Shown here: piece after piece, positions 47,551 through 51,778 of the stretch
Numbering within the stretch: position 1 is the stretch's first letter
Layout: each line of letters opens with the position of its first letter
From: a virus
Strand: one strand, 5' to 3'
DNA length: 64,000 nt
Virus record (IMG/VR): IMGVR_UViG_3300025133_000045
Location: 35,826 to 99,825 of that record
Position numbers and translations under genes: made by a program
Notes under the pieces: model-generated
What the model saw: the letters and a program-made list of their open reading frames with translations, nothing else
The model's database searches: none
Told to the model about the DNA's origin: nothing

Positions 47551-48302
47551 TAAAGCTCCGCTTCTGCATCTTCAAGTTGTTCCTGATCTTGTTCTTGATC
47601 TTGGGGGAGCGGCTGAGTATCAGCAACGGGCAGTTCAGGAGACATTTCATCTAAAAACTTATCCAGGTACTTGTCGACATTTTCTTCTCCATATTTGTCA
47701 AAAACATCCCTGTCACTGGGGTCTCCCAAAAGTTCATATTTATCAAGAATATTCTGCTGAATCTTCTTCATAACATTAAAAGCAACATTCCGACCAGTCT
47801 TATCTAAATCGGCATCTTCTAAGCCCTTGGTAAAATCATCCATGGGATCAACTTCTTTATCCTCGATATCAATAATATTCTCATCATCACCAAAGTCGCC
47901 CTTCCTACCGACATCTATATCGACATCCTCAGCTATTGCAACCATGCCAGCAGATGCATTCATATTTGCAAGATCTATAAGATTTCGCCACGCATTCAAA
48001 ACGTGAGCCCTGAATGACGTTTTTTGGTCAAAGTTCGTGGTAAGAGACTTAAAGCTAGTCTCAAGCTGAGGGATAATCTCCTTTAGGAGATCCTCCAGAA
48101 CATTAATTCCAGTGGAACGATTTGGGATTTCATCAGGAACGGGAGCCCTTTCTGCGAGAATTCCACGGATAACCTTGCGAATCATCTGCTCGGCCATCAA
48201 CTCTTTCTTTTTTTCTTTTGCTTGTCTTTCTTTGACAATTCTGATGATCTTACGGACATTTTCACGTAATAACATCTCTTCAACCAAATCATTCCTTTTC
48301 AT
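47550..48302 (-). CDS. Acidic hypothetical protein, possible prohead core/internal protein
   Basis: Repeated amphipathic helices (LLRENVRKII, IRKVIRGILAE) and an acidic tail. Confidence 0.5.
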   Translation of the reverse strand: MKRNDLVEEMLLRENVRKIIRIVKERQAKEKKKELMAEQMIRKVIRGILAERAPVPDEIPNRSTGINVLEDLLKEIIPQLETSFKSLTTNFDQKTSFRAHVLNAWRNLIDLANMNASAGMVAIAEDVDIDVGRKGDFGDDENIIDIEDKEVDPMDDFTKGLEDADLDKTGRNVAFNVMKKIQQNILDKYELLGDPSDRDVFDKYGEENVDKYLDKFLDEMSPELPVADTQPLPQDQEQDQEQLEDAEAEL

Positions 48303-51300
48303 CGTGTAGAACTCCTCGTTTCATTCAATAAATAGTCCATAACTTCGTTAATCAACTTCTCTTCTTGAACAAGTGAGCCTTTCATATTTAATTTTGAACG
48401 TTTCTTTTCTTCCTCGTTCTCTTCTCCGACATCATCGCCTTCCCAGGGTCCACCTTGTGCCGCTGGGGCTCCTTCCACATTGCCTCCAGCCATGCTGGAA
48501 TTTTCTTCGATGTCAGCAGGCTCGTCTTGCGCTTCTCGGATCTTATCGTAAACTGCTTTATATTTGTGTTTTAAATTGACAGGAAGCCCTTGAGGTGCTA
48601 TATTGTTATACCATTCATCGAAACCTAATGATAAAGCTGATTCCCTAGCCTGTGTCCCACTCATTAAACGAGGTGTTTCAATCATCTTTACCAAAACATC
48701 ACCATTTTCATCCTTATCAATGGGCAAATAATCGTGATCCTCTAAATATTTGCTAGGGCTGAAGGTTCGCAATGCCTTCATATATTTCCCAAACCTATCG
48801 GCTCCAGCGAGCCAACCTACAACTTTATGACCCTTATCGTGAAGATCTTCCATAATATCCACGATAAAGCCGCTCTTTGAAAACTTATCAGCCACTATAA
48901 CTTCAGGATCTCCTTCGTAGATTGAAGAAAGAAGCTCATATTGCTCTTTCTCGCTCAGAGGGTTTGTTGCTTTGTCTTCGCTTGTAGCTGCCCCCTTAAC
49001 AAGCATAATATACACTGCATCAGCCCCTGCATCGGCAAGCGCTTTCTTTCCCTTCTCAACCATTGCATGATGGCCAAGGTGCCAAGGCTGGGCTCGGCCA
49101 CTCCAAATTATCACCCTCTTCCTAAAGTCATCTTTTGGATCCCGACCAACTCCAGCTTCAAAATTAATGATTCGATCAACCCTGAAGCCCAAAACAGCGT
49201 TCAAAAGGTTAATGTAGTAGGCTTTGCCACTTAGATTGGAATTTGTAGCTTTATTCAAGGCTACAATCTTTTTTTCAAGTCGTACAAAGAATTCTTCCGT
49301 CTTCCTCACAGAATCTGCATCGAGATTGGGTGCCGTCTTTTTAAACTTTGCTTTATCGTTTTGAAGCTGGCTTTCAAAGGTTTTTATTGTTTCTTTGGCT
49401 TTTTCCTTGATCCCGCTAATATCTGGTTCGCTCTCGACCAAATAAGGCACCAAAGAGGCTAAAAACTCCATTTTTCGATTAGAACCACTCTGTTTGGGAC
49501 TAAATGTATCTGCGGCTGTTCGTATTGCCCGGTTTAAGGCCGCTGGTTGTGATGTCTTGAGCCCGAGGATTTCTTTGATAAAGTGATTTTCGAGAGCCTT
49601 CTCAAGATTGAGAATATTCACCCTGTCTTCCCAGAAAATGTCTTTTCTCTTATCAAAGAGTTCAGAGGTGCCCTTGACCTCGTAGATATCCCCATTTGGC
49701 TTTTTGATCTTGAGTACGACCCCTTCTATGTAAGAATCTTCGCCCCCAAGCCTAGAAGATGCCTTATTGGCAAATCCGTTTAATGCTCCTTGCAATTCTT
49801 TGCTTACTTTGTCGAGTTCTTTGACAAGTTCCTTTTTTGCTGGAGACCCTTTGCGGGTGGACAAGAGTGTGATCCCCTTTTCGAAATTTGACTTGTCCTT
49901 GAGATAATGTGCCAAAACTTTGCCGATATTAATATGAAATACGCCCTCCATTTTCATATCTTCATCGTTGGTATAAATTCTCCATTCCGCAGCCCATCCA
50001 GCTTGCATAGATTCGTATTTCAGTAGGCTTGTTAGCTCGTTATTCTGATCAGGGGTCACTTTATACCAGTTTAGGCGGTCAGAATTCCAAAGCTGACAGT
50101 TAAAGAGTACAAAAGCACCTGCTTTTCCAAACTTTTCCCTCGAATAAGGGGTGCCAACAAAAATAATATTATCGTTACCTTTTGACCCCTCATGTGTTAA
50201 AACAGGGAACAATTCAGCGTCATAACGGAAAGGGCCGACTCTATCAAAGAGGTTTTTCAATGATTCTTGAAAATTCTTATCATTTTGAAGATATTTGAAC
50301 GATTCCAGAAGATCTACATTGAATCCGAATCTTTTTTCAACGTTTTTAGTATAAACCGGCCCACTATTGCTCGATTCCATGAAAAACTGTTCCCTTTTGT
50401 CCAAACCGAAGTGACAAAACGACGAATCCATCTTTTCAACGAGGTCAATCGACGAGTTATTTCCAAAGTCAATGTCAAAACCGGTTTTCCCTTCGTTGTT
50501 GGACTCATCGACCAGTGTACGAAGAACGTCAAGAGCGGTTTTGCGAGTGAACTTGCTTTTCCCAGCAAATCTGCCGATTCCTGTTCTAGCTTCATTCACC
50601 ATCTCTGGATTTTTGGGCGGTTCCCAAGTCTTTTTCATCAGCTTACCCAGAATTGTCATTCCCAAGTTGTATTCTTCTTTGCCGATGCTCCTTTTAAGGT
50701 TCATCTCCGCACTGTCAATAAACTTCTCCCAAATTATATCGATATCAGAAGTTCTTTTATTCCTTCCTATGAAGTTGGCCAGCTTTGACGCATGATAAAT
50801 GGTTGAACCCGATGCTTCGGGGTGATCCAAGATTGTACGTGCCAAAGCGTCCAAATTTTCAAATCCAATGCGAGATTCAGACTCAACGTCAATGCTTTTC
50901 CGTGACATCTTGGTAGGGTCGCCTCTTTTTGGCTTTCGAAGATCCAATACGAGTTTTAAACCCCTCTCGCCAAGCGAAAACCTAGCACCGACAGGATCCC
51001 AGCCTAATTTTCTCTGCTTTTGAAGCATCTTTGCAAATTCAGTGTCAGGGTTGTTCTCGGCAGAGTCCAAAACAGCCTCAAAGGCGTCTCCTTGCTTCAA
51101 TTCCATAGCTGCTGCAACAGCGCGTAGCAAAATAATGGAGAATGCACCTTTCACCTGAGACGCAAGATCAACAAAGCTGCTTTTTTGAAGAAACTCTTTT
51201 GTTGCCCTCGCATTGGCAACGTCTACAAGATCTATTTGAAAAACACGATTGCCAACACGCACTGCAATGTGAATTTCGTTCTTTCCGCGCCTCGTGGCAT

Positions 51301-51778
51301 ACACCGAGGGGTCAATTTCCTCGATGGCCGCTGCGACCTCTTTAGATGGGGCAGCAAAGACAACATCAATATCCAAATCACCATAACTTGTCTTTTTTTG
51401 CGATGCCATATTAATCACATCATCTGTTTCAAACTGGTCCGTTGCAACAACATCGGACCCATAATGTTTTAGGGCTGCCAACCTAGTAGAGCCTACTTGA
51501 TATCGAGGAGGAACTGATGTATCGAGAAGCTTCTTTTGTCCGAGGAGATATAAAAGTTTTCCGATATACGTTTGATCATCGGCATCTGGAAAAACCCCAT
51601 ATTCCTTGGGCAAGACCATGCTCAAATCTTCATCCGAGATCGTTGAATACGTCATATCCCGTTCAGCATTGTCAGGATGAGAACTTAATTTAGTTTTTAT
51701 GAGAGTGTCTGCTGCATTCCCTCCTTCAGAAAGGAGTTCCCTCACCAGACTGAAAAGAGTCTGCTGCAAGCCGGTCAT
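48299..51778 (-). CDS. Multidomain protein: Pol-beta-type nucleotidyltransferase + ATP-dependent ligase-like domain + HxGH (NMNAT/cytidylyltransferase-like) domain (1159 aa)
   Basis: GST...GDLDID...QIDL; EKMDS, DAELF, EGVVLK, YEVK; GRAQPWHLGH, NPLS, MSGT..R. Confidence 0.7.
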   Translation of the reverse strand: MTGLQQTLFSLVRELLSEGGNAADTLIKTKLSSHPDNAERDMTYSTISDEDLSMVLPKEYGVFPDADDQTYIGKLLYLLGQKKLLDTSVPPRYQVGSTRLAALKHYGSDVVATDQFETDDVINMASQKKTSYGDLDIDVVFAAPSKEVAAAIEEIDPSVYATRRGKNEIHIAVRVGNRVFQIDLVDVANARATKEFLQKSSFVDLASQVKGAFSIILLRAVAAAMELKQGDAFEAVLDSAENNPDTEFAKMLQKQRKLGWDPVGARFSLGERGLKLVLDLRKPKRGDPTKMSRKSIDVESESRIGFENLDALARTILDHPEASGSTIYHASKLANFIGRNKRTSDIDIIWEKFIDSAEMNLKRSIGKEEYNLGMTILGKLMKKTWEPPKNPEMVNEARTGIGRFAGKSKFTRKTALDVLRTLVDESNNEGKTGFDIDFGNNSSIDLVEKMDSSFCHFGLDKREQFFMESSNSGPVYTKNVEKRFGFNVDLLESFKYLQNDKNFQESLKNLFDRVGPFRYDAELFPVLTHEGSKGNDNIIFVGTPYSREKFGKAGAFVLFNCQLWNSDRLNWYKVTPDQNNELTSLLKYESMQAGWAAEWRIYTNDEDMKMEGVFHINIGKVLAHYLKDKSNFEKGITLLSTRKGSPAKKELVKELDKVSKELQGALNGFANKASSRLGGEDSYIEGVVLKIKKPNGDIYEVKGTSELFDKRKDIFWEDRVNILNLEKALENHFIKEILGLKTSQPAALNRAIRTAADTFSPKQSGSNRKMEFLASLVPYLVESEPDISGIKEKAKETIKTFESQLQNDKAKFKKTAPNLDADSVRKTEEFFVRLEKKIVALNKATNSNLSGKAYYINLLNAVLGFRVDRIINFEAGVGRDPKDDFRKRVIIWSGRAQPWHLGHHAMVEKGKKALADAGADAVYIMLVKGAATSEDKATNPLSEKEQYELLSSIYEGDPEVIVADKFSKSGFIVDIMEDLHDKGHKVVGWLAGADRFGKYMKALRTFSPSKYLEDHDYLPIDKDENGDVLVKMIETPRLMSGTQARESALSLGFDEWYNNIAPQGLPVNLKHKYKAVYDKIREAQDEPADIEENSSMAGGNVEGAPAAQGGPWEGDDVGEENEEEKKRSKLNMKGSLVQEEKLINEVMDYLLNETRSSTR

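Follow-up and report, generated by a model that had tools for sequence, protein, structure and literature searches.

A marine phage protein joining three nucleotidyl-transfer folds, a candidate enzyme for the repair of broken nucleic-acid ends

What would a phage do with three different nucleotidyltransferases in a single polypeptide? The question is raised by gene P0001, an open reading frame (ORF) coding for 1159 amino acids (aa) in a stretch of 64,000 nucleotides (nt) of viral DNA (positions 35,826 to 99,825 of IMG/VR virus record IMGVR_UViG_3300025133_000045; this whole stretch is called the window here). The record is 99.8 kb long with an estimated completeness of 55%, and the window is a part of it. 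Judging from sequence similarity, the source phage is a distant marine relative of T4, since homologues of T4 gp18, gp20, gp21, and gp23 (30-38% identity, tblastn) are encoded upstream of the window and a gp6-like baseplate wedge protein within it. The 1159-aa protein joins three nucleotidyl-transfer folds, the catalytic residues of which are kept in more than 50 homologues (Table 1). We consider, with middling confidence, that it is a multi-enzyme protein which repairs broken nucleic-acid ends, most likely those of RNA, and which is probably packaged, cut, and injected.

Table 1. Features of the three-domain gene, its product, and its closest neighbors; positions refer to the window.
Feature	Residues (aa)	Position (nt)	Strand	Remarks
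Three-domain protein gene P0001	1-1159	48299..51778	minus	open ORF, 1159 aa
Leader helix	1-18	51725..51778	minus	ends LLSE, then GGNAAD; candidate capsid-targeting propeptide
Pol-beta-fold nucleotidyltransferase domain	19-396	50591..51724	minus	G96 S97; D134, D136; D183
Covalent nucleotidyltransferase domain	397-715	49634..50590	minus	motif I K449-M-D451-S, III E522, IV E685-G686, V K702
All-helical subdomain	716-880	49139..49633	minus	after ligase core; no OB fold
HIGH-motif (cytidylyltransferase-like) nucleotidyltransferase	885-1085	48524..49126	minus	H900-L-G-H903; S1040-G-T-x-A-R1045
C-terminal tail module	1093-1159	48302..48502	minus	starts after IEE (1090-1092)
Upstream ORF, coiled-coil-like	97 aa	51775..52068	minus	stop overlaps start of three-domain gene; conserved neighbor
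Downstream ORF	250 aa	47550..48302	minus	ATGA start overlaps stop of three-domain gene
Second downstream ORF	119 aa	47191..47550	minus	kept in L003-L007; no family match
Phage tmRNA gene		46702..47074	minus	1.2 kb downstream, same strand; Rfam RF00023 115.7 bits, E 1.7e-44; ARAGORN

Three folds and their recurrent association

A first-pass annotation, made from the nucleotide sequence alone, had recognized the three folds and had named mismatching predicted structures or unconserved catalytic residues as the outcome that would overturn its assignment. The opposite was found: the predicted structures match, the catalytic residues are conserved, and the N-terminal and central folds are now backed by structural models and the third by sequence. 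All the motifs which it quoted are present close to where it had placed them, with QIDL falling slightly outside the range given.

The Pol-beta fold of the N-terminal domain was confirmed in its model (predicted local distance difference test score, pLDDT, 91.8), in which the order of strands and helices fits the superfamily. The G[GS] signature, the DxD pair, and the third carboxylate of this superfamily are all present, in GST (aa 96-98; nt 51485-51493), GDLDID (133-138; 51365-51382), and QIDL (181-184; 51227-51238), respectively, and G96, S97, D134, D136, Q181, D183, D204, and G211 are invariant in 53 N-domain homologues. The gap between GS and DxD is long (37 residues), and the model contains a PolX-like second subdomain. 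DNA polymerases and RNA-tailing enzymes rank above cGAS/DncV-like nucleotidyltransferases (CD-NTases) among the structure matches. PF10127, PF01743, and PF01909 match neither the 1159-aa protein (E ≤ 1) nor any of the 53 members (E ≤ 0.01), and PF01909 is found in 33% of the members of one Atlas neighbor cluster. P-TIM40 gp184 was considered as a relative, but showed no relation to the N-domain profile (hhalign).

Judging from its model (pLDDT 94.3), which has the nucleotidyltransferase fold with the motif I lysine at the end of a strand and a loop after it, the central domain belongs to the covalent nucleotidyltransferase superfamily, and its catalysis is predicted. The motifs are EKMDS (aa 448-452; nt 50423-50437), DAELF (520-524), EGVVLK (685-690; 49709-49726), and YEVK (699-702). 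Among 52-54 central-domain homologues, E448 is kept in 51, K449 in 48 of 52, D451 in all 53, and E522 in 51 of 54; among 54 homologues, E685 and K702 are each kept in 50 and G686 in 53. Because position 452 varies (S in 31 homologues, G in 15, and A in 7), the canonical KxDG exists in this family and KxDS is a variant of it. The change of KxDG to KxDS noticed at first reading is thus true of this protein, but S452 is a common variant in the family.

The 20 best Foldseek matches of the central model in the PDB are all RNA ligases, as are the matches among viral structures, and RNA ligases score 2-3 Z units above DNA ligases. E685 and K702 pair with E204 and K225 of T4 Rnl2 in hhalign, while the alignment of the central profile with T4 Rnl2 over the whole domain is weak (E 0.13) and only motifs IV-V align. 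DSSP assigned nothing but helices to model residues 311 to 475; the oligonucleotide/oligosaccharide-binding (OB) fold domain that follows the core of DNA ligases and capping enzymes is absent from the model, and PF01068 gave no match. This helical region without an OB domain fits RNA ligases and speaks against a classical DNA ligase or capping enzyme. Rnl2/Rnl5-type RNA ligases (e.g., T4 Rnl2, T. brucei REL1, and Naegleria gruberi NgrRnl) are among the closest known systems. Our protein differs from them in its KxDS motif I, in a Thr replacing the second lysine of motif V, in ~90 extra and mostly helical residues between motifs III and IV, in the lack of a match to PF09414 or any other ligase Pfam model in the 1159-aa protein at E ≤ 1, and in having the ligase domain flanked on both sides by fused transferases.

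The HIGH fold of the C-terminal domain is assigned from PF01467 (E 3.6e-4; 21.2 bits against a cut-off of 21), from the PHROG cytidyltransferase families phrog_3041 (E 4.7e-15) and phrog_395 (E 1e-11), and from the comparison of the family profile with the PDB, where the nicotinamide mononucleotide (NMN) adenylyltransferases (NMNATs) 1f9a (6.7e-5) and 2qjt (7.1e-5) were matched (archaeal NMNAT, NadM). Within GRAQPWHLGH (aa 894-903; nt 49070-49099) and NPLS (939-942), residues R895, Q897, H900, G902, H903, N939, P940, and L941 are invariant in the C-domain homologues, and at and near MSGT (1039-1042) S1040, G1041, T1042, and R1045 are at least 90% conserved.

A word-indexed search returned 52 full- or part-length homologues of the protein, nearly all from marine metagenomes including Tara, and a full HMMER scan of the representative library returned 232 at E ≤ 0.001. 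The domains belong together, because their fusion or adjacency recurs. The N domain (aa ~16-390) also occurs alone as proteins of 350-400 aa, the central and C-terminal parts occur without it in P0040-P0052, and in four distant loci it is encoded by a separate gene directly upstream of a ligase+HIGH gene. In P0194, the N domain is joined to a PF09414 RNA ligase. The HIGH domain is found on either side of the ligase-type domain, depending on the homologue; its clade is fused to DUF6267 in P0125 and P0151, while in P0163 its fusion partner is a third ligase-like domain, whose KIDG, EGVVLR, and VKITG motifs are canonical. In a single case (P0085), the HIGH domain is fused to ART-PolyVal, an ADP-ribosyltransferase domain that uses NAD. 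Proteins which differ widely in length and in their N-terminal part also have the last ~65 residues at their C termini, the tail alone matching P0148, P0163, P0166, and P0184.

Named relatives were scarce. The whole protein matched nothing among PDB sequences (phmmer), and the only tblastn match among 50,697 phage records was a cytidyltransferase from Xanthomonas phage BUDD, which aligned with the C domain. Pfam searches with the standalone homologues of the N and central domains returned no named family except PF09414 (P0194) and PF01467, and P0163 had no tblastn match among phages.

The DUF6267 pair and the putative packaging of the protein

The ligase-like and HIGH domains have a counterpart in cultured marine phages. 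DUF6267 (PF19782), usually beside a gene annotated as cytidyltransferase, was found by tblastn in 468 cultured phage records, nearly all of them cyanomyoviruses, plus Pelagibacter phage HTVC008M; unannotated, it also occurs with its partner in thousands of metagenome clusters. It has the ligase-like motifs KWDG, PEGFVA, and VKLVDR, and aligned with the central domain in hhalign with motif I in register (E 3.7e-4, probability 36%). The DUF6267-cytidyltransferase fusion of S-PM2 is a Foldseek match of the central model (1.1e-4), and the cyanophage cytidylyltransferases are homologous to the C domain (hhalign E 2e-29; BLASTP 4e-11, 2e-13, and 7e-8). Judging from these alignments, the ligase-like and HIGH domains are the DUF6267 + "cytidylyltransferase" pair in diverged form: both pairs have the same HIGH nucleotidyltransferase family and a partner with ligase motifs, fused in S-PM2, while the cyanophage pair has no Pol-beta domain and sits in the replication module, as seen in P-TIM40 and S-SZBM1. 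The PF19782 model itself does not match the central domain. A search of this record and of four related partial ones gave no DUF6267, while four control phages were readily positive, so that the central domain may be the DUF6267 counterpart here. The DUF6267 profile matched nothing among PDB sequences at E ≤ 10, and all that a DUF6267 protein matched in the Atlas was viral clusters without a name. The function of the cyanophage cytidylyltransferase has been described as unclear (PMC9146016), and DUF6267 is unmentioned in the literature that we searched. In the S-PM2 genome (NC_006820 103037-104222; L024, L026), DUF6267 is split over two frames, the second half running into the cytidyltransferase frame, while the UniProt form is fused (591 aa); the split copy may be a frameshift or a sequencing difference.

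The family leaders, two virion proteomes, the hydrophobic-x-Glu sites at the domain borders, and a gp21-type protease together suggest that the protein is probably packaged, cut by the protease, and injected as a polyprotein. Gp21-type proteases cut after Glu in short hydrophobic-x-Glu motifs, and leaders of 10-19 residues ending in this way direct the internal proteins of T4 to the head, while Alt is trimmed at both termini (PMC9026906). Both of these elements are present here, a leader ending hydrophobic-x-Glu and a gp21-type prohead protease encoded in the genome (Peptidase_S77, E 2.6e-30). Leader residues 5-17 have pLDDT <50. Homologues have leaders of differing length or none at all, while (I/L)(I/L)xE-GG is retained, and many standalone N-domain proteins begin with MGG(N/Q)A, that is, with the GG N terminus expected from cleavage after LLSE. 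Eight [LIVMF]xE sites are conserved family-wide, five in the catalytic cores, one in the tail, and two at domain borders; the latter (aa 16-18 in 18 of 18 sequences and 394-396 in 22 of 23) both lie at predicted low-confidence borders. IEE precedes the shared tail, and (L/I/M)xE stands just before IS(S/A)MAGG in all four other tail-bearing proteins, so from its sequence the tail module may be a propeptide too.

The protein thus resembles T4 IPI-III and Alt in its short amphipathic leader ending hydrophobic-x-Glu in a genome with a gp21-type protease, and Alt also in that a C-terminal piece follows such a putative cleavage site. It differs from them in that the mature parts have no sequence homology and that its packaging and cleavage are predicted ones, and its cyanophage relatives have leaders that are more T4-like than its own of 18 aa. 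As read from the T4 genome, IPII and IPIII begin with MKTYQEFIAE; cyanophage C-domain homologues begin with MRFLDFIKE, MRFRQFIIE, and MKNFSSFLTE, and 118 of 120 metagenomic DUF6267 proteins (P0195-P0314) have M(F)AFxxFLTE-like starts (MFAFxxFLTE, similar to T4 capsid-targeting sequences). The DUF6267 proteins of P-TIM40 (L016:6067-7257) and S-SZBM1 (L018:11478-12671) start at MAKNTHLEHLED without a leader, and the list of virion proteins does not include the S-SZBM1 copy. The cytidylyltransferase was detected in two independent virion proteomes, as S-SZBM1_140 and S-CREM2 ORF154 (PMC9146016; PMC10665884), and these detections concern homologues of the C domain only. The "injected enzyme" of the first-pass annotation therefore has circumstantial support, from the protease, the family leaders, and virion proteomes with C-domain homologues.

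Four nearby ORFs on the minus strand (57200-57640, 60194-61201, 61260-62459, and 62456-63034) begin with amphipathic leaders that are nearly identical to one another (MNLLFENWNKYLAE, MMKLLMENWRKYL, MKLLLENWRQYLKE, and MSKYYKNWKRFLYE). These leaders are similar to the capsid-targeting sequences of T4 and may be the mark of a group of internal proteins that are packaged.

Proposed RNA-end repair and its alternatives

In the repair reading, the targets would be tRNA, transfer-messenger RNA (tmRNA), or mRNA that host nucleases have cut. The N-terminal leader would direct the protein into the prohead, where the gp21-type protease would cut after the conserved hydrophobic-x-Glu sites at the domain borders, and the protein would be injected with the DNA and act ahead of phage gene expression. 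The Pol-beta-fold domain may extend a damaged 3'-OH end by one or a few nucleotides; K449 of the central domain would be adenylylated by ATP, AMP transferred to the 5'-phosphate end, and the break sealed as by Rnl2- and Rnl5-type ligases; the HIGH domain would perform a third nucleotidyl transfer coupled to the ligase-type domain. We observe the three folds, find their catalytic residues conserved, and see the domains repeatedly fused or adjacent, and it is from these observations that we infer the substrates, the preference for RNA over DNA, the packaging, and the cleavage.

The pairing of a Pol-beta transferase with an RNA ligase is an already known repair theme. RlaP reportedly puts one or two nucleoside monophosphates on damaged RNA 3' ends ahead of ligation (PMC12776372). 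Like the RlaP or CCA-adding enzymes with RNA ligases, our protein links a Pol-beta-fold nucleotidyltransferase to an RNA-ligase-type enzyme, fused or adjacent; unlike RlaP (PF10127) and the CCA-adding enzymes, it has no match to the three Pfam families named above, a 37-residue gap, and a PolX-like second subdomain. We discounted CCA addition for maturation, since CCA is already encoded in the tmRNAs and in nearly all of the phage tRNAs. RNA is preferred to DNA because of the ligase fold ranking, the lack of an OB domain, the P0194 fusion, and the RlaP precedent, and also because a tmRNA gene lies just downstream in every three-domain locus (in L003, L004, L005/6, and L007, the gene is followed by a tmRNA with a related tag, making the tmRNA a conserved neighbor in the three-domain clade), with arrays of 18 and 16 tRNAs in L004 and L007, respectively. 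The tmRNA argument is weakened by T4 itself, where the internal-protein genes ipII, ipIII, and ipI likewise flank the tRNA cluster (AF158101 65416-73878; L020), which parallels the position of our gene beside a tmRNA/tRNA cluster. Of the functions proposed in the first-pass annotation, RNA-end repair has thus become the best supported one, yet it is deduced from the RNA-ligase fold, P0194, and the RlaP-ligase theme.

It is possible, though we do not think it probable, that the enzyme is directed at DNA, combining PolX-like gap filling with a nick-sealing ligase for the incoming or replicating phage genome. Its targets would be nicks, gaps, restriction cuts, or ends, and its ligase-like domain, along with the DUF6267 relatives, would account for the "missing" ligase in marine T4-like phages. 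The PolX-like alignments of the N domain and the location of the cyanophage pair in the replication module agree with such a role, as does the lack of a recognized ligase in cyanomyoviruses; according to reviews, these phages have no recognizable gp30 ligase, which has been remarked since 2005. For our phage, however, the absence of a DNA ligase is weak evidence because the record is only about 55% complete. The domain which follows the ligase core is helical and not of the OB type, RNA ligases are 2-3 Z units ahead of DNA ligases, and P0194 couples the N domain with a domain of an RNA-ligase family. To our knowledge, an OB domain is present in all known DNA ligases.

A broader version of the packaging idea seems rather unlikely to us, namely that the ligase-like + HIGH module is a packaged, protease-processed "first responder" injected by nearly all marine T4-like phages, that it is the unrecognized cyanomyovirus ligase, and that its NMNAT-like partner is chemically coupled to it. 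The coupling could take the form of NMN + ATP to NAD+ (or of NAD+ + pyrophosphate to ATP), recycled as the AMP donor, or an A(5')pp(5')N linkage could be made or resolved directly on 5'-phosphate ends, by a chemistry identical with that of NAD+ synthesis.

It is unlikely that NAD+ supply is the main role, with the C domain a true NMN adenylyltransferase which rebuilds NAD+ against NAD-depleting defenses or for NAD-using enzymes, and with the other domains accessory. Archaeal NMNAT and NadM are indeed the nearest PDB and NCBIfam relatives of the C domain, which shares GR(F/A)QP(F/W)HxGH, NP(F/L)(T/S), and SGTxxR with NadM and archaeal NMNAT (MJ0541 and Francisella NadM); two homologues were automatically named NMN adenylyltransferase by JGI; and P0085 joins the HIGH domain to ART-PolyVal. 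The curated NadM/NMNAT models, however, score only 15-23 bits overall against cut-offs of 127-409 (NF003786, PRK01153, and TIGR01527, with scores of 23.2 vs. 397, 20.4 vs. 127, and 15.6 vs. 181), with only the first ~70 residues aligned, and the invariant Q946 stands where the NMNAT motif NPFxxxER has R. Phage NadM reportedly always co-occurs with NadV (PMC9503650), and NadV (PF04095) was not found in this record and five related partial records (21-55% complete). Unlike NadM, the protein also has no Nudix domain, and ligase-type domains persistently accompany its HIGH domain. The C domain is thus sound in its fold and its transferase chemistry, while NMN is a candidate substrate, with NMN to NAD+ as one candidate reaction. 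The regeneration of NAD+ against NAD-depleting defenses, proposed at first reading, gains little from these sub-threshold scores and from six partial genomes in which NadV was not found.

A nucleotide-signal enzyme, another suggestion of that reading, whether as a CD-NTase-like synthase or as a signal destroyer in anti-CBASS or anti-Thoeris counter-defense, is very improbable and almost unsupported, since CD-NTases appear only among many weak Pol-beta-fold matches, ranking below DNA polymerases and RNA-tailing enzymes and mostly with root-mean-square deviations of 7-10 Å where the alignment is long, and since the ligase domain, the HIGH domain, and the gene context give no pointer to signaling.

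Compared with the literature that we searched, three things are new: the ligase is permanently joined by a HIGH-motif enzyme as the third transferase; one and the same transferase family is fused to each of three ligase-like domains that differ greatly from one another; and such enzymes have T4-like capsid-targeting leaders. The repair reading also provides a testable identity for two genes that are very common in cyanophages and pelagiphages of the ocean, DUF6267 and its "cytidylyltransferase" partner, and, if injected, these enzymes would be a new class of pre-made counter-defense or genome-care cargo.

Gene neighborhood

The three-domain gene lies in a dense minus-strand operon, with overlapping stop and start codons at both its ends. 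The 97-aa ORF is directly upstream in L003-L007 too, and its Pfam matches are weak and of the coiled-coil kind only. The 250-aa ORF corresponds to the C-terminal extension of ~1400-aa homologues (P0021 residues 1145-1368; 34% identity, E 6e-36, BLASTP) and adjoins the gene also in L003, L005, and L006; it has a conserved PHxSTGINVLEDLLK motif and matched no Pfam or PHROG family. A 308-aa ORF upstream was compared with P-TIM40 gp181 and showed no relation (BLASTP). In the distant loci L008, L011, and L012, the Pfam families of the neighbors were DNA methylases, ribonucleotide reductase, and a 3D domain, with no repair partners.

The tag of the phage tmRNA is ANNNDYFNSVRLAA, and a near-consensus sigma-70-like promoter (TTGACA-17-TATATT, 47194-47166) stands just upstream of the tmRNA gene. 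Sigma-70 and terminator scans were close to background. The window contains more copies of the T4 late-promoter motif TATAAATA than expected (9 vs. 2.9), but no such site stands just upstream of the three-domain operon, so the motif gives no pointer to the timing of its expression.

Within 6 kb downstream of the three-domain gene, a PIN-PhoH fusion (PIN_4 + PhoH; 42865-44187, minus strand) is encoded. A second small cytidylyltransferase-like protein (45031-45492, minus) is nearest to RfaE domain II and to glycerol-3-phosphate cytidylyltransferase; a calcineurin-like metallophosphoesterase (45947-46681, minus) could be a 3'-end healing enzyme. A run of sugar-modifying genes (a nucleotide-sugar epimerase, two glycosyltransferases, and others; 27626-40674, minus) separates the tail module from the PhoH region, and two giant ORFs of 3079 and 2270 aa (3597-12836 and 16690-23502, minus) lie in the baseplate/tail-fiber region.

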